A DNA stretch of 63,352 bases, filler included. It is 4 parts of 4 records of this genome, joined end to end, with 100 filler letters (N's around TTAATTAATTAA, not from the genome) between each part and the next. Parts side by side here need not be neighbours in the genome. Positions count along the whole stretch, not along the records: positions 34,313 to 51,380 come from SRR20825006_336; 3 more parts are not named here. One strand, 5' to 3'. Positions 16,183-51,480 of the stretch are shown here, in pieces. The number at the start of each line of letters is the position of its first letter. The stretch's first letter is position 1. The notes below the pieces were generated by a model. It was not told the origin of the DNA, made no database searches, and saw nothing but the letters and a program-made list of their open reading frames with translations. Both the position numbers and the translations under genes were made by a program.

Positions 16183-16282
16183 NNNNNNNNNNNNNNNNNN
16201 NNNNNNNNNNNNNNNNNNNNNNNNNNTTAATTAATTAANNNNNNNNNNNNNNNNNNNNNNNNNNNNNNNNNNNNNNNNNNNN
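16183..16282. other. artificial contig spacer
   Basis: N44-TTAATTAATTAA-N44, with stop codons in all six frames. Confidence 0.98.
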
Positions 16283-18357
<2,075 letters not shown>

Positions 18358-19174: not shown

Positions 19175-19247
<73 letters not shown>

Positions 19248-19324
19248 GTGATTTTGAGTTTCGAGGAGGAAGGGTGACGTTCCGTTGAAAACGGGAACAT
19301 TGCCCTACCACCTCGGCACTCGAG

Positions 19325-19398
19325 TGGGCGTGCCAGAACTCGAATCTGGGACCTCGTCGTTATCAGCGACGCGCTCTAACCAACTGAGCTACACGCCC
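19325..19398 (-). tRNA. tRNA-Ile(GAT)
   Basis: GGGCGTGTAGCTCAGTTGGTTAGAGCGCGTCGCTGATAACGACGAGGTCCCAGATTCGAGTTCTGGCACGCCCA forms a cloverleaf. Confidence 0.96.
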
Positions 19399-34212: not shown

Positions 34213-34312
34213 NNNNNNNNNNNNNNNNNNNNNNNNNNNNNNNNNNNNNNNNNNNNTTAATTAATTAANNNNNNNNNNNNNNNNNNNNNNNNNNNNNNNN
34301 NNNNNNNNNNNN
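34213..34312. other. artificial contig spacer
   Basis: N44-TTAATTAATTAA-N44. Confidence 0.98.
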
Positions 34313-34339
34313 ACCGGGGCTAACGCCCATCGGCTAATT
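34313..34339. repeat. truncated REP-like element at the contig start
   Basis: ACCGGGGCTAACGCCCATCGGCTAATT contains a GGGC-TAAC-GCCC hairpin. Confidence 0.5.
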
Positions 34340-34374
34340 GTTTTCACTCGCTATACGACTAAATCGACAGGCTG

Positions 34375-35319
34375 CTAGACCGAGCGGACTTCGCCGATTT
34401 GTAGTCGGTGGCGATAGTCGGCGACGGTTTGTGTGAGACCATCGTCCAGACGGATGGTCGGCTGCCAACCGGTGGACCGGATTCGGCTGATGTCGGTGCA
34501 TTTGACGGGAGTCCCGTCGGGTTTGCTGGCGTCCTGAACGATTTGCCCTTCAAAACCAGTTGCGTCGGCAATCTTTCGTGCGAGGTCGGCGATTGTCAGG
34601 TCGACCCCCGTTCCAACATTGACCCAGTCGGGAGGGTTTTCGAGCTGGAGCAGGTGTTCGGCTGCCGCAGCCAAGTCATCGACGTGCAGGAATTCACGTC
34701 TTGGTTTTCCGCTGCCCCAAACGGTGACCGAATCGGCGTTCTTTTTCGCAGCGTCGTCGAAGCGTCGAATCAAGCCTGGAATCACGTGTGAATTGTCCGG
34801 GTGATAGTTGTCGCCCGGGCCGTACAGATTGGTTGGCATCGCACTATGAAACAGTGCGCCGTGCTGTTGTCGGTAGTACTGGCAGAGTTTCAGCCCCATG
34901 ATTTTGGCCAGGGCGTATCCCTCGTTGGTTTCTTCGAGAGGGCTGGTCAGCAGAGCGTCTTCTTGGATCGGCTGAGGAGCCATCCGCGGGTAGATGCAGG
35001 TGCTACCTAAGAACAAGAACCGTGAGACACCCGTTTGAAAAGCCGCGTGGATGGCGTTGGCCGCCATCATGGTGTTGTCGTAGGCAAAATCGGCTGGGTA
35101 GGTCGCGTTGGCGTGAATGCCACCGACCTTGGCCGCCGCGAAAATGACTGTGTTGGGGCGTTCCGATTCGAAGAACTCGTTGACAGCGGCTTGGTTGCAA
35201 AGATCCAGTTCGGTCCGTGTGCGGGTGACGATTTGCAGATCATCGCGGTCGGCAAATCGACGAAGGATGGCCGATCCGACCATGCCTCGGTGTCCGGCAA
35301 CGAAGATCTTTTGGGGCAT
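34375..35319 (-). CDS. fcl: GDP-L-fucose synthase
   Basis: [50 protein letters not shown] and [15 protein letters not shown]. Confidence 0.96.
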
Positions 35320-36091
35320 TGTTGGGAAGTGGGAAAGGGCCGCAGGGGCTCAGGGCCACCGGCGGATGCATTGGGGGACGGCTCGCTTCCTGGCGGAAGC
35401 ATCGGTTGGGGTGCCAGGTGAGACCTGGCCTACGTTGGCTAGGCGTCGCGGAGAAAGTCGTGCGGGCGGATGTTGAGTCCGAATTCTTGGCGAATTCGGC
35501 TACGGAGCGTACGGTCGGCCTTGCTCACGCGGCGGGTTGTGACTGGTGCCGGTCGTTTCGGCCAGAAAATTGCTTGGTCAGCGCGGACTTCGTCCACTTG
35601 GGTGACACTTGTTTCATTGTCACCGCCGGCGGGCCGGAAAGTTCAGCCAAAGTGAATTCGTCGCCTAATCGGACTTTCCACATCTGGATGATTGTTAAGT
35701 GCTCAAAGTCGCGGCATCGGGTGCGACCTGGTGGGGCTGCACGCATTGCACGACTTCAAGGTATCTGGTTCAGGTTCATTTTAGCTTCCTGAACCAAATT
35801 CGCTTCCCCCTCCGCAACTTTTGATCGCCCCCGTTGGGGCACCCGAGTCGCGGCGTGAAAAGCTACTCAATCCATAGCACGCTGAGCGGGCGGAGGAGCA
35901 ACTTCCCGGGAATGCTGAGAAGATTAGTTGGTGTCATGGATTGTGAATCGGCGAACTCGCCAGTGCTGGCGTAATCGGATTCATTTTCTGTTAAGCTCTC
36001 GCTACAACCCACACCTCGCTCGTTTTCGGCCGTCACAATGTGCACCGCCGTCTGATATTTTCGTCCCGATTCGACCGGTTCGCCGCCCCCC

Positions 36092-36937
36092 ATGCCGATT
36101 CAAGTCACTTGTCCAAATTGTCTGAAACGGTTCCAAGTCAGCGACAAGTTTGCTGGGAAGCAGGGGCCATGTCCGGCATGTAAAAAGACGATTCGGGTCC
36201 CCGACGCTTCCGAAGCCGTCACGATCCACGCCCCCGAAGACGATGGGCCGAAGGATTCGAAGGGGCAGAGTGTTCTCAAGCCGATCACTCGGAAAGACCG
36301 AGATTTCACGCGGCGGCACCTCTACATCGCTGCAGGCGTTGTACTTGGGATGCTCTTTCTAGCTCTCGGGTTCCGTTTTGCGATGGGTGGGGCTCCGCTT
36401 TGGGCTCAGGTTATCGGCATTTTGCTGCTTGCACCGCCCGTGGTTCGAACGGGCTACAGTTTCGTCCACGACGCAGAATTGGAACCCTATGCAGGAGTCG
36501 AACTACGCAACCGAGTCCTGATCTGCTCGGCAGTTTACGCTGCGATTTGGTTGGTTTACGCATTTGTTCCCGCGTATGTGTTGGAGTTGGATCATGCCAA
36601 CGAAATGTCATGGACGACGGCCGGGATCGTTTTTTCTGTCATGATCCTGATCGGAGCGGCGGTTTCGGTTGGGGCTTTTGAGTTGGAATTCGTCAGCGGC
36701 TTGGCACAGTCAGGTTTGTACTTCGTCACCGTAATTTTGCTGGCCCTGATTGCGGGCGTTTCGCTCGCGGGGCAACCCGGGGCTCGCCGAGAACTCGATC
36801 CAGATTGGGAGGACGAGGAGTTCGTTGACGATCTCGTGCAACTGCCTTCCCCGGTGGAGATGACCGGGGTGGCTGAACTAGCATCCATCGATCGAATCGG
36901 ACAACTGACTGGCACGGTTCAGGGCTCGTCCGTTTGA
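36092..36937 (+). CDS. zinc-ribbon membrane protein of unknown function
   Basis: N-terminal CPNC...GKQGPCPAC followed by about 5 TM segments. Confidence 0.8.
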   Translation: MPIQVTCPNCLKRFQVSDKFAGKQGPCPACKKTIRVPDASEAVTIHAPEDDGPKDSKGQSVLKPITRKDRDFTRRHLYIAAGVVLGMLFLALGFRFAMGGAPLWAQVIGILLLAPPVVRTGYSFVHDAELEPYAGVELRNRVLICSAVYAAIWLVYAFVPAYVLELDHANEMSWTTAGIVFSVMILIGAAVSVGAFELEFVSGLAQSGLYFVTVILLALIAGVSLAGQPGARRELDPDWEDEEFVDDLVQLPSPVEMTGVAELASIDRIGQLTGTVQGSSV

Positions 36938-38349
36938 GTGACTGCAATTCCGTGTCTGTTCCTGAAGTGCATTTGATGGATCGCGGGCCATCGCGGTTGC
37001 GGATTCCGCCCGCGATGGATGTACCAGTAACCGCTCGCGTCCAACGGTTGATCGACACCGCCCCGATGAGAAGACTGGCGTCGATCAGCCAGCTCGGGTT
37101 GGTTTCGATGGTTTATCCGGGAGCGATGCACAGCCGGTTGGAACATTCGCTCGGCGTCTACACCTGGGCGCTACGAGTCCTGAATCAAGTTGGCCAGCAG
37201 AGCCCAGTGGAACAAGGCTCAGCGAACCAAAACGCCGAGAACACTCGTGCGTCCGAGGCGTTCATCGTTGCGTCTCTGGTGCATGACGCTGGTCACTGGC
37301 CGTTTTGCCATCCCATCGAAGACATGGGCCAGTCCGGTATGCCGCGGCACGAGGAACGTGTCGAAGCGATGTTGCGTTCCGGGCCTCTCGCCGATGCACT
37401 GGCAGCGGACTGGTCGTGCACCGCCGATGACGTTATGGCGATCCTGTGTCCGAAAAAGATCGATCAGTATCCAGCGGCAACTTCATCGGAGCACATCGCG
37501 TTTTATGCGAGTTGCTTAAGTGGGCCGATCGATGTCGACAAATTGGATTACCTGCAACGCGACAGTCTGCATGCGGGAGTTCCGTATGGCCGAAACTTTG
37601 ATCCGATGCGAATTATCGCTTCTTTGGTTCGGCATCCGGATCGGCCGAAGCTGGCCATTCACGAAAAAGGACGCACGGCGGCGGAGATGATGGTCTTCGG
37701 TCGTTATGTGATGTTCAGCGAAGTCTATTGGCATCATACAGTTCGTGCAGCCACCGCGATGTTGCAGCGAGCTGTTCACGAATTGCAGCAATCTGCCGGT
37801 GGCGAAAAAGCCGACATCACCAAGTGGATGGACCTGAGTGAGTCAGCTTGGGTGAGGCAGTTTGTCGACTCCGCGGATCGTCGTGGTGGGCCAGTGAAGA
37901 GTTTGGCGGATGGATTGTTCGGGCCGACACGGAAGTTGCTCAAGCGAGCGGCGGAGTTCAACGTCGAGTCCGGCGAAGACATGCACCAGATGCTGGCGAG
38001 GCGTCCGTATTGGTGGCTCGCGTCTTGTTCGCAACCGTTGGCCGCGTCCATTGGCGATGCGATTGGGAAATCCTTCGAGCCGGAATTGGTTCTGATCGAT
38101 GCGCCGCCGGTCAAACTGGAGGTCGACATCAACATCGACATCGTGCTTCGGTCGGGCGAGGTCGCGACGCTGGGTGATGTTTCGCCCGTTGCGTCGGTGT
38201 TAGCCAATCGCCAATTCGACAATCATGTCAAACGTGTGAGAGTGTTTGTGCCCGAGTGGGTTCGTGATTGCTTGGCTGACTTGCCCGGCGATTCGATGCG
38301 AAGATGGCTGACCGACGCGGTCGCTGAAACTGAAAAACAGTGGGCGTGA
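36934..38349 (+). CDS. HD-domain phosphohydrolase (SAMHD1/YwfO-like)
   Basis: RRLASISQLG, YPGAMHSRLEHSLG, HDAGHWPFCH, DVDKLDYLQRD and VYWHHTVR. Start uncertain (TTG 36934 or ATG 36976). Confidence 0.88.
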   Translation: MSDCNSVSVPEVHLMDRGPSRLRIPPAMDVPVTARVQRLIDTAPMRRLASISQLGLVSMVYPGAMHSRLEHSLGVYTWALRVLNQVGQQSPVEQGSANQNAENTRASEAFIVASLVHDAGHWPFCHPIEDMGQSGMPRHEERVEAMLRSGPLADALAADWSCTADDVMAILCPKKIDQYPAATSSEHIAFYASCLSGPIDVDKLDYLQRDSLHAGVPYGRNFDPMRIIASLVRHPDRPKLAIHEKGRTAAEMMVFGRYVMFSEVYWHHTVRAATAMLQRAVHELQQSAGGEKADITKWMDLSESAWVRQFVDSADRRGGPVKSLADGLFGPTRKLLKRAAEFNVESGEDMHQMLARRPYWWLASCSQPLAASIGDAIGKSFEPELVLIDAPPVKLEVDINIDIVLRSGEVATLGDVSPVASVLANRQFDNHVKRVRVFVPEWVRDCLADLPGDSMRRWLTDAVAETEKQWA

Positions 38350-38386
38350 CTCAGCATTCCTTTTTGAATGGGTGGGCGGAATCAAC

Positions 38387-39127
38387 GTGATTGAGATAGA
38401 GATTGTTCCCGACCACGAATCGGCGTCAGCGCGAGTGGCAGGGTTTATCGTCGAACAAATTCGCCGCAAGCCAGCAAGCGTTCTTGGTCTGGCCACTGGT
38501 GGCACTCCCGAACGAACGTACGAACTTCTGGTCGAAAAGGTGAACGCAGGTCATCTTTCGTTTTCGCAAGCGACCACATTTAACTTGGATGAGTACGTTG
38601 GGTCGCGGCCCGATCATTCGCAAAGCTATCACGCGTACATGCGATCTCGGTTGTTCGGCAAAACGGATTTTGATGCGGAGCGAACGCATTTGCCCGATGG
38701 CACAGCGGATGATTTGTCGGACGCGGGCAGGCAATACGAGGCAATGATCGCCGAGGCCGGCGGCATCGATTTGCAGTTGTTGGGCCTGGGAGCGAACGGG
38801 CACATCGGATTCAACGAGCCTGGTGCGACGGAGGACAGTCGCACGCGGGTGGTGGATTTGACCGAGGAAACCATCGCCGCGAATTCGCGGTTCTTTGAAT
38901 CACCCGAGGACGTTCCGCGGCGGGCGCTCACGATGGGAATCGCGACCATTTTGGAAGCTCGTGAGATTGTTTTGATTGCGACGGGCGAGTCGAAAGCGGA
39001 GGCGGTCGAGCGAGCTGTTCGCGGGCCGGTCACATCGCGAATGCCGGCGTCGTTTCTTCAGCAGCATCCAAATGTCACGTTTGTGTTGGACGAAGCCGCG
39101 GCAAGCTTGTTGGGTTCGCGGGCATGA
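38387..39127 (+). CDS. nagB: glucosamine-6-phosphate deaminase
   Basis: LGLATGGTP, FNLDEYVG, GGIDLQLLGLGANGHIGFNEPG, ALTMGI and PASFLQQH. Start at GTG 38387 or 38372. Confidence 0.95.
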   Translation: MIEIEIVPDHESASARVAGFIVEQIRRKPASVLGLATGGTPERTYELLVEKVNAGHLSFSQATTFNLDEYVGSRPDHSQSYHAYMRSRLFGKTDFDAERTHLPDGTADDLSDAGRQYEAMIAEAGGIDLQLLGLGANGHIGFNEPGATEDSRTRVVDLTEETIAANSRFFESPEDVPRRALTMGIATILEAREIVLIATGESKAEAVERAVRGPVTSRMPASFLQQHPNVTFVLDEAAASLLGSRA

Positions 39128-40632
39128 GCGTCACGTTGCTGGTCGGTTCGCAAAAGCAGTTGGCCGATGGGCTGCCCTGGCTCCGTCAATTCGCAGAATC
39201 GATGAAGTTGCGAGCGGACATTTTGGTGCTGGGGTTGGATCACCGAACGCTGGAGCTTCGCAGCCAAAAGGAGCTGGAGAGCATAGGGGCTGGGGCGGCG
39301 AAGCAAGCAACCACGAAGTCACCCAATCGCGTTGAGCGAGTGGAGGCCGATGTCGAAGCGATTTCGCTGCAGCTGGCCAAGTGGGATTCGCGTTTGCTGT
39401 TGATGGTCGACGATGTGGATGACGACCGGTTCCAAGCGACCTTGTTCGATCGATGTGCGATCAAATCAGTTTGGCTGAGTTCGAAGGGAACGCCGCCGGA
39501 GTCGTCTCATCATGTTTTCTCGATCGACGATTCGTCTGACAAAGTAACGCGGTGGATCTCGCGGCGTTTGTTGGGGATGGATCCCGGATTGCATTTAGAT
39601 CACGAATGGTTGACCGAGCTAGCCAAGCAAAGTGAGTCGCCGTCTGATTCCGAGTCAGAGCATCCAGACCCAATTGATGCGGCGATCGAGAAAGCACTGA
39701 GTTTGGAGCGGCAACGCTGTGACCCTGGCGATTTGGTTTGGGTGCCGTTTGGATCGAAGCCTTCGTCTGAGCCGCACTACAAAGTTGCTCGAGCGTTGCT
39801 TGGTCAATCGACGCAGGCCTCGGTGGCGTTGGTCAGTCAGAAAGAGAGTTGGAACCAATCGTTGTCGGCGAGCGTTCGGTATTGGGCCAGTCATGTGGCC
39901 GAGCCGATGGATCGCGACGCTCGGTTGGAGTTGGCTCGTTCTCTCGAGGAAGGGTCCGAGCCCAGTTTGGAGTTCCTCGGTTTGATTTCGGCCGCGGCGA
40001 TGTTGGCCGCGTTTGGTTTGCTGCAGAATTCGGCGGCGGTGATCATTGGTGCGATGTTGATTGCTCCTTTGATGACGCCGATCATGGGTGCCGGGTTATC
40101 GCTCGCTCATGGCAACCGCCCGTTGTTTCGCCGGTCGCTGCTGTCGATTGGAATTGGTTTCGCGGGTGCGTTCGGATCAAGTTTCCTGTTCGGATTGCTG
40201 GTTCGGTTGGTGCATCATCCGGTCGTGACGGATGAGATGTGGGGCCGTTGCAATCCGTCGCCGTTGGATTTTTGTGTCGGTTTGGTTGGTGGCATGGCCG
40301 CTTCTTACGCTCGCACGCGAAGCCATTTGTCGTCGGCTTTGGCGGGGGCGGCGATCGCGGCGGCGTTGGTGCCGCCCATTTCGACCGCGGGTTTGCAAGC
40401 ATCGTTCAATGTCTGGGAATCGACCGAGCGTGGCTGGCCGGTCTTTGGGCCGCTGATCTTGGTCTGCGTCAACGTGCTGACGATCATGATTGGGACATCG
40501 TTTGTGCTCTACGCTCGCGGTTTGCGAGTCGAATCGGGGCACAAGTGGGCGACGCGAATGACGGTTTCGTTGGTCACGCTATTGATGTTGGTGCTGGTTT
40601 GGATGATGCACCTGGAAACGTGGTTGTTTTGA
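39124..40632 (+). CDS. DUF389-domain membrane protein with an extra N-terminal soluble domain
   Basis: GLLQNSAAVIIGAMLIAPLMTPI and LAGAAIAAALVPP motifs; ATGA overlap with nagB. Confidence 0.85.
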   Translation: MSVTLLVGSQKQLADGLPWLRQFAESMKLRADILVLGLDHRTLELRSQKELESIGAGAAKQATTKSPNRVERVEADVEAISLQLAKWDSRLLLMVDDVDDDRFQATLFDRCAIKSVWLSSKGTPPESSHHVFSIDDSSDKVTRWISRRLLGMDPGLHLDHEWLTELAKQSESPSDSESEHPDPIDAAIEKALSLERQRCDPGDLVWVPFGSKPSSEPHYKVARALLGQSTQASVALVSQKESWNQSLSASVRYWASHVAEPMDRDARLELARSLEEGSEPSLEFLGLISAAAMLAAFGLLQNSAAVIIGAMLIAPLMTPIMGAGLSLAHGNRPLFRRSLLSIGIGFAGAFGSSFLFGLLVRLVHHPVVTDEMWGRCNPSPLDFCVGLVGGMAASYARTRSHLSSALAGAAIAAALVPPISTAGLQASFNVWESTERGWPVFGPLILVCVNVLTIMIGTSFVLYARGLRVESGHKWATRMTVSLVTLLMLVLVWMMHLETWLF

Positions 40633-40647
40633 GGGAGAACGCCAGTT

Positions 40648-40921
40648 TGTTGCTCGGTGGTGCTTCGCCGAGATTGGCGTTTGAGTTCGCTGTTGGGCCG
40701 GGGGATGTGGGTTGGTTGTGGCTGGGGATTGCCGTAACTCCGCTATCGCTTCGGTACGTCCTACGATGTTGCTCGGTGGTGCTTCACCGAGATTGGGTTT
40801 GGGTGCATTGTTGGGCCGGGGGCTACGGTTTGGGTGCGGCTGGTGGTTGCCGTAACTCCGCTATCGCTTCGGTACGGCCTACATTGTTGCTCGGTGGTCC
40901 TCCACCGAGATTGGGTTTGAG
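40648..40921. repeat. BIME-like tandem array of two REP types (about 118-119 bp period, 2.3 units)
   Basis: Units start at 40648, 40767 and 40885. Each has a CTCGGTG(G)...(C)CACCGAG-type hairpin. The minus-strand REP GTAGG(C/A)CGTACCGAAGCGATAGCGGAGTTACGGCA occurs at 40730-40764 and 40848-40882. Confidence 0.85.
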
Positions 40922-40943
40922 GTCATGGCGTCACGGTTCGTGG

Positions 40944-41951
40944 TCAGCTGGGGTGCTGGCGAACTGACTCGCGTAGCACGACGTCGCCGCCCAGTTTGGG
41001 AAGGTCTGGTTCGCTGCCGTTGATCATCGCGATGATCGCGGTCGCTGCGGCCTGGCCCATCTCTTTGCCGGGCTGGCGGATGGTGGTCAGTGGTGGCACC
41101 ATCCACTTCGATTCGGGTTGATCATCCACGCCAATCAACGAGACCTGATCGGGAACGGAAACCTGCCGGCGATGAAGAGCCAGTCGTGCACCGAATGCCA
41201 TCAGATCATTCGCGGCAAAGATCGCGGTGTAAGGCACGCCCCGTTGAGCCAAGGTCTCGATCGCTTCCGCGGCCGATTCCGCGTGGAAGTCACCGTTGAT
41301 GATGTGGTCGTCAGTCACCTCGATACCAGCCTGCTGCATCGCGTGCCGGAACCCGGCAAGCCTGCCGATCGCATCAATGTGATTCGCTGGGCCAGCGATG
41401 TGGACGATTTCTCGATGACCGTGGTCGAGCAATGCCTGGGTCGCGTTGGCGCCGATTTGGAAGTTGTTCGTTGCGATGTTCGCGCCATCCCAATCCGGCA
41501 TCTCTCGCGCGACGACCAAAGTTGGTTTTTCTTCGCCGAGCTCTTCGATCTTTTCAGAGGGTGTGTCGCCCGCGATCAAAATCAATCCGTCGACATTTCG
41601 TCCCATCAGAGTTCGGGCGGCGTCGAGAAACAAATTCTGATTCAGCATCGCGTCGCCGACGATGGGTGAGAATCCGGTCCCGTTGAGCCCTTGCATCACG
41701 CCTTGCACGACCGAGTCATAAAACGGCGTGCCGATGTTTTGTGTCACGATCCCGATTGTCATTGATCGGCCGCCCGCCAAAGAGCGAGCGACTTGGTTGG
41801 GTTCGTAGCCCAATTCTGCCATGGTCGCCATCACGCGTTCGCGTTTGTCGGCTTGGACAATCAGCGGGCTGTTGAGGACTCGCGAAACCGTGCTTTTGGA
41901 GACTTCTGCTCGATTGGCAATGTCCTGGATCGTGATCCGGCCTTTTGACAT
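40944..41951 (-). CDS. LacI-family transcriptional regulator
   Basis: ITIQDIANRAEVSKSTVSRVLN HTH, YEPNQVARSL hinge, AANDLMAFG and PPLTTIRQP. Start moved to ATG 41951 (41966 possible). Confidence 0.95.
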   Translation of the reverse strand: MSKGRITIQDIANRAEVSKSTVSRVLNSPLIVQADKRERVMATMAELGYEPNQVARSLAGGRSMTIGIVTQNIGTPFYDSVVQGVMQGLNGTGFSPIVGDAMLNQNLFLDAARTLMGRNVDGLILIAGDTPSEKIEELGEEKPTLVVAREMPDWDGANIATNNFQIGANATQALLDHGHREIVHIAGPANHIDAIGRLAGFRHAMQQAGIEVTDDHIINGDFHAESAAEAIETLAQRGVPYTAIFAANDLMAFGARLALHRRQVSVPDQVSLIGVDDQPESKWMVPPLTTIRQPGKEMGQAAATAIIAMINGSEPDLPKLGGDVVLRESVRQHPS

Positions 41952-42190
41952 CGGGCGTGGTCTCATTGGGGAACGGGCGGAAAGGATCGTTCTGAATGGA
42001 AGCGAACGCTCGATTCTGATTCTAACCCGATTTGGCCAAAAAATCGCCACCACGCGAGCCCACGTGGGGCGTTTACTTGGTGCCTCGGTCGAGCGTGCCG
42101 GTCAGGCTTCTTGCACGACGATTTGGCTTCGCCGGCCGTGGAAGGCCAGCGTGGGTTTGTTCGCCGGAAGTGGCTGTCTCGCGGGCGAGA

Positions 42191-42451
42191 TCATTTCGCC
42201 GGCGGATTCAATTCCTGCAGCGACTTGCCCAGCCGTTTTCGCGGGGCGGCTTTTCGGCCGGTCGAGCGAGTGCCCTTCTTTGCCGGCAGGGCTTGTTTGC
42301 CTGCGGTGGGTTCCTGCAACAACGCCGCGACTTGCGGGTTGATTTCGGACGACTCGTCAGGAGTGCCGATTTGCTCGACCGCGTCGCTCACGCCCAGGAT
42401 GACGGATTGGCGAACGCCGTCTCGTAGCCAGTCGAAAAAATTCAGGTTCAT
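42191..42451 (-). CDS. small hypothetical protein
   Basis: MNLNFFDWLRDGVRQSVILGVSDAVEQIG (amphipathic) with a basic tail, RKRLGKSL; divergent from rpsA. Confidence 0.6.
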   Translation of the reverse strand: MNLNFFDWLRDGVRQSVILGVSDAVEQIGTPDESSEINPQVAALLQEPTAGKQALPAKKGTRSTGRKAAPRKRLGKSLQELNPPAK

Positions 42452-42616
42452 ATCTCAATTGGGTGGTTGGTGTCGGTGAAGGATCGCCGCCGATGGTCCG
42501 AGGATTTCGGTGGTTGGGCGGCTGCGATCCGTTCACGGGTCTCAGATCACGTGTCATGCCTCACGTTCGTCGCCTGTAAAACAATCGTCGGCGGGGTGTC
42601 CAGACCAACAAACGCA

Positions 42617-42645
42617 TTGTGACGAATTTCCGACTTTGGTAGGCT
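42617..42645 (+). promoter_or_regulatory. putative sigma70 promoter of rpsA
   Basis: TTGTGA-17-TAGGCT with a TG extended -10. Confidence 0.5.
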
Positions 42646-42788
42646 TCTCGGCTAGGCGCCGCGGCGAGTCCGCGGGGACGCCCCCCTCCGGCTGTAGTTT
42701 TACAATCCACACCACCAACCCAGGTGACGGATCGACGGGTCATTTGCCGGAGCCCGATCGATACGATTTCACCATCGGTAACGTTTTT

Positions 42789-44585
<1,797 letters not shown>

Positions 44586-44604
44586 TCCAATAAAATTTCA
44601 ACGA

Positions 44605-44755
44605 GGGCAAATCGGGTGCTTCGGGATCCGGTTGCCCGGTTGGAATCGATTGTCTTCGTTGTGAACGCCTGTCGCCCCTTCACGGGCTCGACGGGGGTTC
44701 CAAGACGCAGGCATGAGCTGCTCATATCGAGCGGCATTCGCATTGAACATTGACA
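44605..44755 (+). ncRNA. candidate structured RNA (cUUCGg hairpin plus three-way junction); unassigned
   Basis: Hairpin at 44605-44637; nested pairings TGTGAA/TTCGCA, GCCTG/CAGGC, CCCC/GGGG and GCTGCTC/GAGCGGC, folded by eye. Confidence 0.4.
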
Positions 44756-44760
44756 TGTAT

Positions 44761-44799
44761 GACGGGCGTTTGATCTGCTTCAGACGCCCGTCTTTTTTT
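44761..44799 (+). terminator. intrinsic terminator
   Basis: GACGGGCGTTTGA-TCTGCT-TCAGACGCCCGTC followed by T7. Confidence 0.9.
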
Positions 44800-44888
44800 G
44801 CGCCGTATATTTGATTTCTGTCTACACGGCCAAGCGGAGAGCGGAGATTTGTCCTCGTTCAATGCAACCACTTTCATCAATGTTCGCT

Positions 44889-46157
44889 ATGAGAATCAAT
44901 CGCCGCGAAATGATTGGCGCAAGCCTGGCTTCCGCAGCCGCAGTTGCCAGTTCAGACGTCTTTGCGGCGCCGGCCATTCACAACGGGGAAAAACCGGTTG
45001 TGCGTGTTCTCGGAACACACGTGACCCTGCAGGAAGACCTGCGGGTTCGCGCGGAGGCTGATCTGGGGATCAGGCTGGAATTCTCGCCAGGTGGCAGTGC
45101 GGAGGTTCTGCACCGCGCGTCGACGCGTCCCGAGACGTTTGATTTGTATGAGCAGTGGTCCAACAGTATCCGCGTGCTCTGGCAGGCAAACGCGATTCAG
45201 CCGATCGATCGAAAAAGGATTCGGTACTGGGATGAAATCAACCCGCTGACCCGCGAAGGACGTTTGACTCCCAAAGCGAAGCGCGGTGCGGGCGATGCAC
45301 CGAATAAGTTGCTGTTCATCCAGCCCGATGGAACGTTGGGCGGCCAACCAACGGACAACGTGACGTTCCTACCATACGTGCACAACGTTGACTCGTTTGG
45401 TTACGACGCGTCGATCGTTCCACGTGGTGTTCCGTTCGAGACTGAATCGTGGGCTTGGTTGCTCGATGAGCGTTGGGCCGGTCGAGTCGCAATTGTCAAC
45501 GAACCCACCATTGGTCTGTTCGATTTGGCTTTGGCCGTTCAAGCCAAGGGTTTGGCCGAGTTTGAAGACATTGGCAATCTCAGCGAAGCCGACTTGGAGA
45601 CGCTGTTTAAGATTTTGGAACGCTATCGACAGGAAGGTCATTTTCGCGGTGTCTGGAGCAGTGTTCCGGCATCCGTTGATTTGATGAGCCGCGGTGAGGC
45701 GGTCATCGAGAGCATGTTTTCACCAGCCGTGTTCGATTTAAAAGGCCGCGGGATTGATTGCGTCTACGCCTCACCCAAGGAAGGCTATCGAGCTTGGCAC
45801 GGTGTGATGTGCTTGTCGTCCAAGACAACCGGTCCGGTCAAGGATGCGGCGTATGAATACATGAATTGGTGGTTATCGGGATGGCCGGGAGCATTCATTG
45901 CTCGCCAAGGCTATTACATCTCCAACCCGCAACGTTCGCGTGAAGAGCTTAGCGAAGCGGAGTGGGATTACTGGTATCAAGGCAAACCTGCCGCGACAGA
46001 TTTGCTTGGCACAACTGGGCAGGTTGTTGTTAACCAAGGGCAACGTCGTGACGGCGGTTCTTATGTCAAGCGATTCAGCAACGTTGCGGTTTGGAACACA
46101 GTGATGAAATCTTACGAAGCCAGCCTTCGACACTGGAATGAGTTCCTGGCAGGATGA
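44889..46157 (+). CDS. Tat-exported solute-binding protein (PotD/PotF-like)
   Basis: Twin-arginine signal NRREMIG...VFA-A; ESWAWLLD, SPKEGYRAW and AYEYMNWWL. Start moved to ATG 44889. Confidence 0.8.
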   Translation: MRINRREMIGASLASAAAVASSDVFAAPAIHNGEKPVVRVLGTHVTLQEDLRVRAEADLGIRLEFSPGGSAEVLHRASTRPETFDLYEQWSNSIRVLWQANAIQPIDRKRIRYWDEINPLTREGRLTPKAKRGAGDAPNKLLFIQPDGTLGGQPTDNVTFLPYVHNVDSFGYDASIVPRGVPFETESWAWLLDERWAGRVAIVNEPTIGLFDLALAVQAKGLAEFEDIGNLSEADLETLFKILERYRQEGHFRGVWSSVPASVDLMSRGEAVIESMFSPAVFDLKGRGIDCVYASPKEGYRAWHGVMCLSSKTTGPVKDAAYEYMNWWLSGWPGAFIARQGYYISNPQRSREELSEAEWDYWYQGKPAATDLLGTTGQVVVNQGQRRDGGSYVKRFSNVAVWNTVMKSYEASLRHWNEFLAG

Positions 46158-48085
46158 GCACCATGATCTCTCAATTGATTGGGCGAACGCTTCGGCAGCG
46201 CATTTACCTCGCCAGTGCCTGTTTTGTGCTGCTGTGCGTTTTGGTTGCTTGGTTTGGTATCACCGGACAGTCGGCTTTGTTGGAAAGCTTTGCCGAGTAC
46301 CAACGAGCTGAGAACACGTCGGTCGCGATTGAATCGATTGAGAGAAAGGTTCAGGAACTCAAGTCTCGCAGCGAGCGATATCTTTTGACCGGAGCATCGG
46401 CTCAGTACCGAGCCGCACTCAGTTTGCAGGATCAGTTGGCCGACGAGATCGAGCGAGCGAAGGGAGAAACGCCGGCGATCCAGGACACGTTGGGCCAGAT
46501 GGAAGGCCACTTGAACGTGCTGAGCGATCAGCTGAAATTGGCTGCCGAGGAAAGAGATCTGCGATCGCAGTTGGTGCAAATCGAATTGCCTGCGAAGGCG
46601 GAACGTGTTCGCGAAGCATTCAACGCATTGCGAGCGGAATGGATGAAGTCTCCTGTCGAAAAGGAGCCGCAAATCCGCCAACACGGTAGTGCTCGCGGTG
46701 CATACGTTTCGGCTCATCGGTCGTTGCTCGAATACTTCAATCATCCTAAGTCGGAGAGTTTCGATCTCGCTAGTCAGCACTTGGAAAAATCACGCTCTGT
46801 TTGCGTGGAGCTGAAAGAGGATCCTGCAAATCAGCAAGCTGACATTCAGCTGCTCATGGAAGAGTTGCTCGCCAGTTTGAGCGAGTTTCAAAGAGTCGGC
46901 ACGCGAGCCTTTCAGGCAACCCGCGGCTACATGGTTTATTCGAATGTCGTGATGGCCGGCGAGATATCGGAGTTCAGCTATCAATCGTCTCGGCTGAAGT
47001 CGTACGTCCAAGAGCAAAAGGCGTTGAACCAGCGAAACCGCGAAGCGTCGTTCCGACGGTCGCAGTATTTGGCGGTGGGAGCGGCGATGGGGGCTGTGTT
47101 GTTGGCGATTTTGCTGGCGACCAGTCTTTCGATGGCGGTCGTGGGGCCGATCGGACGTCTGACCGAGATGTTCCGGCGTTTGGCTGCTGGTGAAACGATG
47201 GCGATCAGCGATGAGATCGGCCGCACGGAAGAAATCGCACAGATGGTCAACGCGGCGCGAGTCTTCAGCGACAAGAACCAAGAAACGACTCAGTTGTTGA
47301 TTCGTTCAGAAACGCTGAGCGAAGAGCTGGCAAAGAAGGCCGACGCGCTGGTGGAATCGAACAAAGAGCTTGATAATTTTGCCTACATCGCCTCTCACGA
47401 TTTGAAATCTCCGCTGCGAGGGATCCAGCATTTGGCGAGCTGGGTTCAAGAGGATTGCGAAGACATCTTGCCGGAAACGTCGCAAACGCATTTGGCTCAC
47501 ATGCAATCCCGCGTCCGCAACATGGAATGCCTGCTCGATGACCTGCTCAATTATTCGAGAGTCGGCCGCGTCGATGCACGCCCCGAAGTAGTGGACTGCA
47601 GTGAAGTGGTTTCAGGAATCGTCGAAATGGCGGATAATTCGGAGGACTGCCAAATTTCGTGGGAATCGCTGCCAACGTGTTCCACGGTTCGGACGCCTCT
47701 GAAGCAGGTCTTGCTGAATCTGATCACCAACGCAATCAAGTACAATGACAAGGGTGCTGAAGGCCGCGTTAGAGTGAAATGCGTCCAGGATGCGAACTGG
47801 TACAGATGGGAAGTCAGCGATAACGGCATCGGGATCGAGCCTCGGTTTCACGAAAAAGTGTTCCAAATGTATCAGCGAGTCGCTCCAGAAGTTTCCGAAG
47901 GAAGCGGCATGGGACTTGCGATCGCTAAGAAACATGTGGAACATTACGGCGGAGAAATAGGAATCCAATCGTCACCGGGAGAGGGCACCACGTTTTGGTT
48001 CACTTGGCCGGTACAGATCGAAACGGTGAAAACGTCATCCAACGGCGAGCTCGCTGAAGACCCCATTGCAAACGTGCCCACATGA
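46154..48085 (+). CDS. membrane sensor histidine kinase (TM-periplasmic helical domain-TM-HAMP-HisKA-HATPase)
   Basis: H-box FAYIASHDLKSPL, NLITNAIKY, DNGIGI, GSGMGLAI and GTTFWF. Confidence 0.93.
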   Translation: MSTMISQLIGRTLRQRIYLASACFVLLCVLVAWFGITGQSALLESFAEYQRAENTSVAIESIERKVQELKSRSERYLLTGASAQYRAALSLQDQLADEIERAKGETPAIQDTLGQMEGHLNVLSDQLKLAAEERDLRSQLVQIELPAKAERVREAFNALRAEWMKSPVEKEPQIRQHGSARGAYVSAHRSLLEYFNHPKSESFDLASQHLEKSRSVCVELKEDPANQQADIQLLMEELLASLSEFQRVGTRAFQATRGYMVYSNVVMAGEISEFSYQSSRLKSYVQEQKALNQRNREASFRRSQYLAVGAAMGAVLLAILLATSLSMAVVGPIGRLTEMFRRLAAGETMAISDEIGRTEEIAQMVNAARVFSDKNQETTQLLIRSETLSEELAKKADALVESNKELDNFAYIASHDLKSPLRGIQHLASWVQEDCEDILPETSQTHLAHMQSRVRNMECLLDDLLNYSRVGRVDARPEVVDCSEVVSGIVEMADNSEDCQISWESLPTCSTVRTPLKQVLLNLITNAIKYNDKGAEGRVRVKCVQDANWYRWEVSDNGIGIEPRFHEKVFQMYQRVAPEVSEGSGMGLAIAKKHVEHYGGEIGIQSSPGEGTTFWFTWPVQIETVKTSSNGELAEDPIANVPT

Positions 48086-48546
48086 AACCGTCTCCTGTCG
48101 ACAGTTCGAACCAAGACGACGTGAAGCGTCCGACGTTCCTTTTGATCGAGGACGATGCGGTCGACGCTGAGGCGTTTCGCCGCGCGGTGAAACGCAACCA
48201 AGTCGATTGCGAATTGGTGCACGCCAGCGACGGTGGCGAAGCATTGGAAAAGCTGCGTAGTATGGTCAACGAAAACGACGACATCGGCGTTTTGGCGTTT
48301 CTCGATTTGAACATGCCTGGACTCAACGGCCACGAATTCTTGGCGGAAGTCCGCCGGGACGAATCGTTGAAACGGCTGGCTGTCTTCGTCGTGACGACTT
48401 CTCGTCACAAACGTGACATTGCATTGGCCTACGACAAAAACGTTGCTGGCTATTTCGAGAAAGACGATTTGGCATCGGTGCTCGAAATTGCACGCCAATT
48501 CGCGGGGCGTTTGGTCTTCCCGACACTGGGCGGCAAAAGCGACTGA
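48082..48546 (+). CDS. single-domain response regulator (Rcp1-like)
   Basis: LLIEDD, FLDLNMPGLNG, VVTTS and GYFEK; no output domain; ATGA overlap with the kinase. Confidence 0.92.
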   Translation: MKPSPVDSSNQDDVKRPTFLLIEDDAVDAEAFRRAVKRNQVDCELVHASDGGEALEKLRSMVNENDDIGVLAFLDLNMPGLNGHEFLAEVRRDESLKRLAVFVVTTSRHKRDIALAYDKNVAGYFEKDDLASVLEIARQFAGRLVFPTLGGKSD

Positions 48547-48747
48547 GCAAAGGTTGGGATGAGTTCATTCCCGCTGATTGCTAAGAGGTGTCGGGTTTTT
48601 GACACCGGTTCTATTGTCGCTCGACCGACCGACTTTTCGATTTTGGCGCATGGTTGTCGATCGCGGCGGAAAAAGCGACAACATTGGTGCGAGATTGTTC
48701 ACCGCCTGAGTGAACCCGTTCCGAGTTGAAGTCTTCTTAGTTGCATC

Positions 48748-49788
48748 ATGTCATCATCCAATCTTCGCGTCGCTCTCGTTGGATCGACCGGTTACACCGC
48801 ACTCGAAGTCGCCCGTTTGCTGCTCACCCATCCCGGTGCCGATCTGGTGGTTGCGACCAGTCGCCAAGACGAGGGCAAACCACTGTCGGAAATTCATCCG
48901 ATGCTGGCCGGACGCTGTGACGTGACACTGCAACCACTCGATGCAGACGTGATCGCAAAATCGGCTGACGTGGCGATGTGCTGCTTGCCTCACGGCGCAT
49001 CCGCAGAAAGCGTCAAGCAATTGGCCGACGCTGGCATGCGAGTGATCGACTTCAGCGCTGACTTTCGGCTCTCGAGTCTCGAAACGTACGAACATTGGTA
49101 CGGCGTCAAACACCCATGGCCTGAGCGGATCGGTAACGTCGTCTACGGCATGCCCGAATTCTTCGCGGACGAGATTCGTAGTGCCGACATCGTGGCCAAT
49201 CCAGGGTGCTATCCCACATCCGCGATCATGCCGCTGGCTCCGCTGGTGAAGGCGGGATTGATCGAAACCGACGACATCATCGTCGACAGTAAATCGGGAG
49301 TCTCGGGCGCCGGTCGTTCACCCAAATTGGGAACGCTCTATTGTGAGACAAACGAATCGATCTCAGCGTACGCGGTAGGCACCCACCGCCACGCACCTGA
49401 GATCGCGGACCTCGTCGAACGAATCGCAGGTGCTCCGATCGAAGTGATGTTCACGCCTCACTTAACGCCGATGGATCGCGGCATCCTGTCGACCATTTAT
49501 GTGAAGCCAGCTGGCAAGGCGGGTTCGGTCGAAGATGCCGTTCGTGCAATGATGAGTCTGTTGCGAGACACTTACTCCGACCAACCTTGCGTTCACGTGG
49601 TCGATCACTTGCCCGCGACGAAGTACGTCGCAGGAACCAACCACGTTCAGATCTCGGTGCGTCCATCGGGCAAACGAGCAGTCATCGTTTGTGCCATCGA
49701 CAATCTCACCAAGGGTGCCAGTGGTGCTGCGGTGCAAAACATGAACGTGATGTTTGGTTTGCCAGAAACGGCTGGGCTGTTGATGTGA
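48748..49788 (+). CDS. argC: N-acetyl-gamma-glutamyl-phosphate reductase
   Basis: VGSTGYT, LPHG, DFSADFRL, ANPGCYPT, SGVSGAGR and IDNLTKGASGAAVQNMN. Confidence 0.97.
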   Translation: MSSSNLRVALVGSTGYTALEVARLLLTHPGADLVVATSRQDEGKPLSEIHPMLAGRCDVTLQPLDADVIAKSADVAMCCLPHGASAESVKQLADAGMRVIDFSADFRLSSLETYEHWYGVKHPWPERIGNVVYGMPEFFADEIRSADIVANPGCYPTSAIMPLAPLVKAGLIETDDIIVDSKSGVSGAGRSPKLGTLYCETNESISAYAVGTHRHAPEIADLVERIAGAPIEVMFTPHLTPMDRGILSTIYVKPAGKAGSVEDAVRAMMSLLRDTYSDQPCVHVVDHLPATKYVAGTNHVQISVRPSGKRAVIVCAIDNLTKGASGAAVQNMNVMFGLPETAGLLM

Positions 49789-49874
49789 TTTCAAACACGT
49801 TGGCGTGATGTTCATGTCGCGGATGTTTGCAAATCGACTTGGACTTGGAACGTTGTTCTGCATCGGAGCTTGTT

Positions 49875-51224
49875 ATGCCTGAAGTCACACCGTTTGCCGC
49901 CTTGCGCTACAACCTGGATCACATTCGGTCGCTTTCCGAAGTGGTTGCACCGCCCTATGACGTCATCGATGCCGATTACCAAGACGTTCTCTACAAACGT
50001 CATCCATCCAACGTGATTCGCGTGATCTTGAATCGCGAGGAACCTGGCGATGAGGTTGGCGAGACGTACTCGCGAGCAGCCGGTTTCGTCAAACAATGGA
50101 TTCGCGAGGGTGTGCTGAAACAGGACGACGAACCGGGGTTCTATCTCTATCACCAAAGATTTGAGACCGACGGCACGGATGGTGAGGTCGAAACCGTGAC
50201 CCGGCGCGGGTTCATGGGACGAGTTCGATTGGAGCCCTTTGGGAAAGGCAACATTCACCCGCACGAAGAAACCCACCCGAAGGCGAAAGTGGATCGTCTG
50301 AAGTTGTTGAAGGCAACACAGCAAAACAACAGCCCGATCTTTGGTTTGTATCCCGACGATGACAACGCCGTCATTGAATGCTTGGAAGCTGCCAAGGACG
50401 ATGTCACGCCGATCGAAGCCACTGACGACGTGGGTGTGGTCCACACCGTTTGGCCCATCACCGATTCGAGTGCGATCACGACGGCCAGTCAATTGTTGGC
50501 GGACAAACCGATGTTCGTCGCGGACGGACATCATCGATACGAAACCGCGTGTGACTACCGAGACTTCGTCGCTGAGCAGGCCGGTGGGATCGCTCCGGAT
50601 CATCCGGTGAACTTCGTGATGACCATGTTGGTTGGCATGAATGATCCGGGGCTGGTTGTGCTGCCGACGCACCGACTGATTCGCGGCACTCGTCCTCTGC
50701 GATCCGAGGAATTGATCGAACGACTTGGCGACCAATTTGATTGTGAAACGCTGAGCGGTGGCATGTCCGCGGCACCCGACGCTTGGACACGAATCCAATT
50801 GGCGAATCGTCAAGGTTTGATGGCATTTTATGCCGCGGAAGACGAGACATGGGTCATGGCCAACGCGAACGAGAAAGCGATGGCCCGCATGTCCGAGCTT
50901 GCCGGCGACCAAAGTGAGACATGGCGATCGCTCGGAGTCAGCTTGCTGCACAAGTTGGTGCTGGAGGATTCCTTGGGAGAAACCAATCATCCCAAGCCAA
51001 CTTATGTCCACGAGGTCAGGGATGTGCTCGCGGGATTGAAAGGCGAGTCGCAAGCCGCGGAATCAGAAGGCGACGGCCAGTACACCTTCGCGGCGCTCGT
51101 GATGCCAGCGTCGGTAGCGGACGTCGAGAAGATCAGCCTGAATCACGAACGCATGCCAGCCAAGAGCACCTACTTCTATCCCAAATTGCTGAGCGGTTTG
51201 GCGTTCCACCGGTTGATGCCGTGA
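49875..51224 (+). CDS. DUF1015-family protein
   Basis: APPYDVI, IHPHEET, NSPIFGLY, VADGHHRYETA and MPAKSTYFYPK. Start moved to ATG 49875 after GGAG. Confidence 0.88.
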   Translation: MPEVTPFAALRYNLDHIRSLSEVVAPPYDVIDADYQDVLYKRHPSNVIRVILNREEPGDEVGETYSRAAGFVKQWIREGVLKQDDEPGFYLYHQRFETDGTDGEVETVTRRGFMGRVRLEPFGKGNIHPHEETHPKAKVDRLKLLKATQQNNSPIFGLYPDDDNAVIECLEAAKDDVTPIEATDDVGVVHTVWPITDSSAITTASQLLADKPMFVADGHHRYETACDYRDFVAEQAGGIAPDHPVNFVMTMLVGMNDPGLVVLPTHRLIRGTRPLRSEELIERLGDQFDCETLSGGMSAAPDAWTRIQLANRQGLMAFYAAEDETWVMANANEKAMARMSELAGDQSETWRSLGVSLLHKLVLEDSLGETNHPKPTYVHEVRDVLAGLKGESQAAESEGDGQYTFAALVMPASVADVEKISLNHERMPAKSTYFYPKLLSGLAFHRLMP

Positions 51225-51298
51225 GTCCTGAGCGGTGCATGGAGGCGATCAACGAATTTTGGTGAATGATACGATTGGTAGCGATGAGGGCGGATGAA

Positions 51299-51380
51299 TT
51301 TGGCCGTTGGCCAAAGCTTCTGGGTGGTGCGTTGCAATACCAGGGGCGTTGCCCGCTGGCTATGTTGAGTTTGGCCTTTG
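51299..51380. repeat. REP/MITE-like palindromic element at the contig end
   Basis: TTTGGCC-GTT-GGCCAAA, CCAGGGGC-GTT-GCCCGCTGG, and a second TTTGGCC cut by the break. Confidence 0.6.
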
Positions 51381-51480
51381 NNNNNNNNNNNNNNNNNNNN
51401 NNNNNNNNNNNNNNNNNNNNNNNNTTAATTAATTAANNNNNNNNNNNNNNNNNNNNNNNNNNNNNNNNNNNNNNNNNNNN
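51381..51480. other. artificial contig spacer
   Basis: N44-TTAATTAATTAA-N44. Confidence 0.98.

Follow-up and report, generated by a model that had tools for sequence, protein, structure and literature searches.

The known systems that most resemble the element described here are intrinsic terminators with structured 3′ UTRs, 3′-UTR-derived small RNAs (sRNAs), and terminating riboswitches or attenuators. A plain terminator does not require an invariant loop or invariant flanking sequence. In enterobacteria, 3′-UTR-derived sRNAs such as CpxQ, SroC and DapZ carry the terminator of their parent gene, preceded immediately by conserved sequence that stays unpaired, and Hfq and ProQ are the usual chaperones of such RNAs. 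sRNAs located between the dual terminators of the E. coli rrn operons are described in another report (PMC8144298). From Planctomycetes, the Rhodopirellula-1 motif has been presented as a candidate cis-regulatory RNA, without an Rfam accession in the table of that paper (Weinberg et al. 2010, PMC2864571). Read by eye, alignment rows of this motif give the consensus AACAA..GAU GAAC..stem..UUAUCC..UGACGUU, in which a hairpin separates the GAAC box from the UGAC box; in the element studied here GAAC and UUGAC follow one another directly, without pairing. On this comparison by eye, the motif has a different consensus and looks unrelated, and it was set aside as an identity for the element.

The element lies within a window of 63,352 nucleotides, which is the whole stretch of DNA analysed. 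It lies in the 303-nt spacer between the stop codon of rpsA (TAG, 44583-44585) and the ATG of a downstream three-gene operon, and rpsA and the three operon genes are all on the + strand. The operon ATG at 44889 aligns with ATGAATCTCAATCG of the orthologues, while the true start of rpsA may lie downstream of the longest-ORF start given here. The features of the locus are as follows.

42510..44585, + strand, rpsA (ribosomal protein S1), longest ORF, with six S1 domains (PF00575, E 6.2e-99)
44595..44646, + strand, P1, a long imperfect hairpin of ~19-21 bp, from MFE and consensus pairs; it encloses a hairpin at 44605-44637 marked earlier
44651..44713, + strand, P2, a variable structured domain, in the window a long imperfect hairpin, from the MFE fold
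44717..44735, + strand, P3, a short hairpin GCUGCUC-AUAUC-GAGCGGC, with 92.5% of alignment cells paired
44736..44760, + strand, a conserved, mostly unpaired linker, from invariant columns; it reads ATTCGCATTGAACATTGACATGTAT in the window
44761..44799, + strand, an intrinsic terminator with a 13-bp stem, a 6-nt loop and T7, from a terminator scan
44800..44830, + strand, conserved GCGCCGTATRTTTGA right after the T-run, with a weak 5-bp helix GCCGU/ACGGY, from invariant columns
44889..48546, + strand, the downstream binding-protein/kinase/receiver operon
44889-46157, + strand, solute-binding protein gene (Pfam SBP_bac_8)
46154-48085, + strand, histidine kinase gene (Pfam HisKA with HATPase_c)
48082-48546, + strand, receiver-only response regulator gene (Pfam Response_reg)

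The runs of N at 16183-16282, 34213-34312 and 51381-51480 flank TTAATTAATTAA, a six-frame stop linker, so that the window consists of joined draft contigs and gene neighbourhoods across these linkers are not real. The rpsA-operon spacer is well inside the piece 34313-51380, away from the N-linkers. Elsewhere in the window, a 23S rRNA gene at 16283-18356 (- strand), with two tRNA genes upstream of it (19175-19398), matches only positions 15-2044 of the 2925 model positions; it is cut by the contig linker at 16282, beyond which the sequence looks protein-coding by eye, and its incompleteness stems from the assembly and does not reflect a fragmented rRNA. On the other side of rpsA, a LacI-family regulator gene (40944-42053, - strand) is divergent from it, and the spacer of ~450 nt between this gene and the annotated GTG start of rpsA (42054-42509) gave no sigma-70-like match.

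The 215 nt from the rpsA stop (44585) to the T-run (44799) are structured well beyond chance, with an MFE of -98.2 kcal/mol compared with -69.4 ± 4.8 kcal/mol for shuffled sequences (z -5.98), and none of 200 dinucleotide shuffles folded as well. The predicted architecture is a row of hairpins, P1, P2 and P3, followed by the unpaired linker and the terminator, and no three-way junction appears in it. A consensus fold was obtained from an alignment of eight sequences, namely the window, the genomes G012, G010, G007, G020, G018 and G022, and the marine contig L039 (TARA), all of which come from one tight subclade, the window, G012 and TARA being ~90% identical or more; it retains P1, P3 and the terminator. 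Searches of Rfam 15 at the gathering score returned nothing in the window except rRNA and tRNA. Under a relaxed threshold (E <= 10) the best match was tpke11, which reached 19.3 bits (gathering score 43) and lies over the terminator in antisense orientation, and the weak matches to tpke11 and STnc290 both fall far under their gathering scores and cover the terminator only. The first-pass annotation, made by eye from the letters, had not recognised the fold as a known riboswitch class, and the Rfam comparison gave no family. A small ORF from ATG 44755 (19 codons in the window) was also considered and rejected, since relatives use another frame and 1-nt indels occur in the T-run (reading by eye).

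P1, which begins 10 nt 3′ of the rpsA stop, is a conserved helix. Its 19 consensus pairs are formed in 97.4% of the 152 cells of the eight sequences, and 14 of the 19 vary yet stay paired, 10 through G-U wobble and four by changes on both sides. This level of pairing was reached by 0 of 500 shuffles, and slid controls gave 20-51%. The wobble pattern indicates a helix in RNA of the + strand, because each G-U pair would turn into an A-C mismatch in RNA of the opposite strand. The shorter cUUCGg hairpin that had been proposed at 44605-44637 has a folding energy of -18.4 kcal/mol, and its UUCG loop is not conserved beyond the closest relatives. P3, the second arm of the Y-shaped fold proposed earlier, has two pairs that changed on both sides, and it is extended by GCGAA/UUCGC in G012 and TARA. 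Beyond the window's own group, UGAGC is present twice after GCUCA in the homologues of 44717-44742, and either copy can form P3. In G022, GCUC and the second GAGC both read GAUC, so that pairing is kept with the second copy and not with the first, and the equivalent UUCGC of G012 and TARA finds its partner in GCGAA/GCGAG immediately upstream of P3 (both partly by eye).

Downstream of rpsA and on its strand, the terminator combines a GC-rich stem-loop with a U-tract, as expected of an intrinsic terminator; the stem has 13 pairs in the window (8 G-C) and 15 bp in relatives, and the T tract varies from T7 to T9. The terminator scan recovered the 13-bp terminator with T7 that had been noted by eye, and the eight homologues all preserve it: the 15 consensus pairs are kept in 8/8 sequences, the loop is invariant too, and pairwise identity is 0.9-1.0. 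In the seven genomes that bear the element, this conserved terminator is the sole hairpin with a T-run seen 3′ of rpsA. Since no other such structure was seen between rpsA and the terminator, rpsA transcripts must cross the element unless Rho intervenes.

The distribution of the element was examined by DNA search with the 215-nt query in 61 related genomes. Matches were found in eight, seven of them directly after rpsA; the eighth, in G019, covers part of P1 and was dismissed as chance, since a long ORF of the opposite strand encloses it. The 3′ end of rpsA was located in 40 of 41 genomes, and the downstream sequence was read at 30 loci. The element is present in 7 of the 23 genomes of the genus (G001, G012, G010, G007, G020, G018 and G022), always between rpsA and the binding-protein operon, G001 being identical to the window over the 215 nt. 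It is absent from 14 other genomes of the genus, two more (G005 and G009) having no usable rpsA locus, and from nine genomes of other genera in the order. The C-terminus of S1 is 98-100% identical inside the subclade and 93% or less outside it. The 215-nt query found one locus per genome, and the P1 covariance model gave exactly one match in each of the seven element-bearing genomes and none at E <= 0.1 in 16 other genomes of the genus, 150 first-look candidates per genome having been scored. Repeated extragenic palindromes or dispersed hairpin repeats were rejected on this single-copy status, as seen with both the P1 model and the DNA query. A metagenome scan with the 21-nt terminator motif added one true homologue, the marine contig L039, which is close to G012; a further match, L040, is a chance occurrence within an aldehyde-dehydrogenase-like coding region. 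A scan of genome contigs returned two records which, from their contig numbers and coordinates, seem to be G018 and G012 again, and they were left out of the comparison. The element is thus single-copy and restricted to one tight Rhodopirellula subclade.

In 10 of the 14 genus genomes that lack the element, a T-run of at least 5 is located 53-82 nt past the rpsA stop and is preceded by a GC-rich inverted repeat (by eye), which is an ordinary terminator. Sister species thus have an ordinary rpsA terminator at the same place, so that the conserved terminator replaces it here. Together with the position of the element, these data lead us to favour, with moderate confidence, a clade-specific structured 3′ UTR of rpsA (S1) with a constitutive terminator, found in one Rhodopirellula subclade. 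The first-pass annotation had offered a structured rpsA 3′ UTR as a fallback, and it is this suggestion that the position, the conserved terminator and a structure without a conserved pocket now bring forward. The likeness to intrinsic terminators with structured 3′ UTRs is close: a GC-rich stem of 13-15 bp, a 6-nt loop and T7-T9 lie on the coding strand past the stop codon, and the upstream hairpins could block 3′ exonucleases, as in the structured 3′ UTRs of highly expressed bacterial mRNAs. Compared with plain terminators, however, the element, which stands in place of the simple terminator of sister species, is unusually long (215 nt, three hairpin domains), and the loop and flanks of its terminator are nearly invariant.

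With a structured 3′ UTR, transcription of rpsA would continue through the conserved P1, the variable P2 and the small P3, and would halt at the strong, sequence-invariant intrinsic terminator at 44761-44799. The hairpins would most likely hold up 3′ exonucleases or direct processing, and so set the stability of a highly expressed mRNA. We infer that termination is constitutive and that the terminator would insulate the binding-protein/kinase/receiver operon, which would then need its own promoter at or beyond the terminator.

A different role had been proposed earlier, in which a Y-shaped three-way junction and an alternative pairing form a transcriptional OFF switch or new riboswitch. All five listed pairings (TGTGAA/TTCGCA, GCCTG/CAGGC, GCTGCTC/GAGCGGC, the terminator and the 11-bp alternative) are found base for base where they were placed. 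As a cis attenuator or riboswitch, the element would be transcribed from near 44597, and a ligand-binding junction together with the segment 44663-44673 would gate read-through into the operon. The likeness to terminating riboswitches and attenuators is that a structured RNA and a terminator precede an operon, with the terminator between the two, and that the window has a pairing that overlaps the 5′ arm of the terminator; in the seven genomes carrying the element, it always precedes the binding-protein operon. The 11-bp alternative pairing (2 G-U) does exist in the window, where the duplex of 44663-44673 with the terminator 5′ arm has -18.9 kcal/mol and is matched by 2 of 200 mononucleotide shuffles, so that it beats the other 198. 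The complement is also present in G012 and TARA, where the pairing is kept through a C-to-U change (-16 to -19 kcal/mol across the three, with 2-7 of 200 shuffles as good). In the remaining five of the eight sequences, however, the pairing is absent: the strongest duplex that the terminator arm can form was matched or beaten by 180 of 200 shuffles in G010, 70 in G007, 41 in G020, 75 in G018 and 92 in G022. The column test gave 75.9% paired for the antiterminator compared with 75.4% in shuffles, and no conserved competitor for the terminator 5′ arm was found in the eight sequences.

The energetics of the two states are also unfavourable to a switch. When the antiterminator is forced, the fold reaches -74.6 kcal/mol, which is 23.6 kcal/mol above the MFE state with the terminator, so that the two near-isoenergetic states expected of the switch are not seen. 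In addition, the 5′ strand of the antiterminator (44663-44673) belongs to the 5′ strand of P2 and is already paired there, with GACGGGGGUUC (44690-44700), well before the terminator is transcribed. The complementarity in the window arises because GACGGGGGUUC resembles the terminator arm GACGGGCGUUU (reading by eye).

The putative aptamer, moreover, is the least conserved part of the element, P2 and the Y region having a pairwise identity of 0.37-0.53 and almost no invariant columns. Of the proposed junction, the pairs exist in the window and the P3 arm is well conserved (92.5%), but in the eight-sequence alignment pairing drops to 56.3% of cells for the closing helix and 56.4% for the GCCTG/CAGGC arm, and the forced Y fold costs 6.6 kcal/mol (-91.6 compared with -98.2 kcal/mol). 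Neither the covarying helices nor the invariant junction nucleotides of a riboswitch aptamer were found in this alignment. The homologous P2 segments (69-70 nt) of the seven sequences folded are all more stable than their shuffles, with z-scores of -3.33, -3.60, -2.43, -2.55, -3.00, -1.76 and -1.28, and the shape depends on the species: one hairpin, which may be forked, or a pair of hairpins. P2 is structured while its sequence and shape drift, as would be expected of a general structural function but not of a pocket for a ligand.

As for the 5′ leader that an attenuator would require, the element lies 10 nt past the rpsA stop, has no promoter-like match (weak scan) and does not track a gene family. 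The TAAAAT proposed as a -10-like hexamer is present at 44591-44596 but is not conserved beyond the closest relatives. The sigma-70 scan returned no site in 42000-46500 and did not flag the rpsA promoter either, so that its silence means little. The receiver protein, too, has no ANTAR or other RNA-binding domain in Pfam.

The element does not follow the operon in other species. Orthologues of the binding protein were found in 14 of the 23 genus genomes, seven of them at other loci with 70-79% identity and different upstream genes. In these seven genomes the 215-nt query found no copy at E <= 0.01, except for the short G019 match, and blastn-short among 5 x 5 upstream regions (L043, L044, L056 and the truncated L054 left out) gave best matches of 10-14 nt with E 0.13-0.51. 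In the genomes compared, element and downstream operon are thus not linked. The orthologues in L050-L056 are at different loci in a second species group, and L050-L053 have their own conserved upstream block, GATGCTCAGWTTTCCAAT-like and ~110-150 nt ahead of the ATG, which has no relation to the block of the rpsA spacer. Lacking a conserved antiterminator, junction core, promoter evidence, family match and gene-family linkage, the element differs from known riboswitches and attenuators, and regulation of this kind is considered highly improbable. The antiterminator pairing is not conserved, which the first-pass annotation had itself named among the grounds for dropping its switch, and that proposal is not supported, a structured 3′ UTR being favoured.

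A plain 3′ UTR nevertheless leaves one part of the locus unexplained. The linker motif CATTGAACA(G)TTGACA occurs in 8/8 sequences, and pairwise identity in the linker is 0.76-0.82 compared with 0.36-0.6 in the rest of the spacer. The block 44736-44814 (~80 nt), which comprises the linker, the terminator and 15 nt past the T-run, is nearly invariant, with a pairwise identity of about 0.8-1.0; the value for the third codon positions of rpsA is 0.88. Near-invariance of an unpaired linker, of a terminator loop and of 15 nt that follow the T-run is not accounted for by a plain 3′ UTR, and this conservation points to an extra sequence-specific role of the block, such as the binding of a protein or RNA partner, or a DNA promoter or operator. 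The helix GCCGU/ACGGY, which pairs 44802-44806 with 44826-44830 and encloses an AU-rich loop, is kept in 7/8 sequences, with one C-C mismatch in G022, and may be part of the promoter region or the 5′ end of the downstream operon. That the linker might pair around the start of the binding-protein gene was considered and rejected, as only 5 nt match (by eye).

One possible role is that of an RNA. The element, or its 3′ part with P3, the linker and the terminator (~85-200 nt), could be a discrete sRNA acting in trans, either cut from the rpsA 3′ UTR, for example at the P1 duplex, or transcribed from an internal promoter, and its acting part would be the invariant single-stranded CAUUGAACA(G)UUGACA beside the terminator hairpin. 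As in the 3′-UTR-derived sRNAs and the rrn sRNAs, the element shares the terminator of an upstream housekeeping gene, and conserved unpaired sequence adjoins the terminator hairpin on its 5′ side; the invariance of the terminator loop and linker exceeds what termination needs. The linker motif is found at one locus, that of rpsA, in each of the five genomes searched (G020 has one extra copy), as would be expected of a specific seed. No sequence relationship to those sRNAs exists, however. Hfq (PF17209) and ProQ (PF04352) were not found in any of three genomes, which are 99% complete, although an sRNA may also act independently of a chaperone. The conserved 15 nt past the T-run would fall outside the terminated RNA of this candidate sRNA.

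The RNA evidence consists of assembled Logan contigs (X1-X4) placed on 42300-46400, in which transcript ends, strand and read-through are not visible. Contigs from RNA libraries cover rpsA, and parts of the binding-protein gene are represented at low depth. X4 (1965 nt), which belongs to a close relative (~97% identical) and derives from marine RNA selected for poly(A), extends from 42716 to 44653 at a depth of 46, and the contigs downstream of it have a depth of ~8 or less; X3 covers 44469-44755 and continues into unlike sequence. The end of X4 at 44653, a few nt past P1, hints at most very weakly at processing or a 3′ end in this place, such as an sRNA cut there would leave, since it comes from contigs of a single study. 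Searches of the literature on Rhodopirellula small RNAs and terminators and on the mapping of transcription start sites and promoters in Planctomycetes found nothing specific, and no transcript-end, promoter or sRNA mapping was found there for the phylum. Taken together, an sRNA acting in trans appears unlikely. The narrower proposal that the linker and terminator hairpin (44736-44799) are the active part of a 3′-UTR-derived regulatory RNA, cleaved from the S1 mRNA in or after P1, is a speculative one and appears somewhat less probable still.

Alternatively, the block 44736-44814 could be conserved mainly as DNA, being a promoter and/or operator of the operon that overlaps the rpsA terminator, and this would be compatible with a 3′ UTR made of P1-P3. 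It is the sole strongly conserved non-coding sequence in the ~300 nt before the operon ATG, and its conservation runs past the T-run, where the terminated RNA has ended. Several TTGA-type hexamers occur in the block, and TAYRTT at 44806-44811 keeps TAnnnT in 8/8 sequences (by eye). A sigma-70-like hexamer pair with proper spacing was not found, however, either by the scan or by eye, and sigma-70, ECF-type and sigma-54 promoter patterns sought by eye in 44740-44830 were likewise discarded for want of proper spacing. The -35 position that would go with TAYRTT falls in the terminator stem and is a poor match, while a 1-nt indel between TTGAACA and TTGACA and the 1-nt indels of the T-run alter the spacings. 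The block is also absent upstream of the orthologous operons in other species. A primarily DNA-level function is therefore regarded as doubtful, and a structured 3′ UTR ending in a constitutive terminator is retained as the preferred explanation.

The locus accordingly loses its riboswitch candidate: the apparent switch is one strand of a variable hairpin that resembles the partner of the terminator, a resemblance lost in relatives. What remains is a modest but real feature, a clade-specific, single-copy 3′ UTR with conserved structure, carried by the S1 mRNA of Rhodopirellula. If its linker and terminator hairpin were indeed the active part of a regulatory RNA cleaved from this transcript, the output of the most abundant ribosomal-protein mRNA would be coupled to a target by a chaperone-independent route. 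Moreover, if the invariant block were an sRNA or a protein-binding site, it would offer an entry point into post-transcriptional regulation in Planctomycetes.
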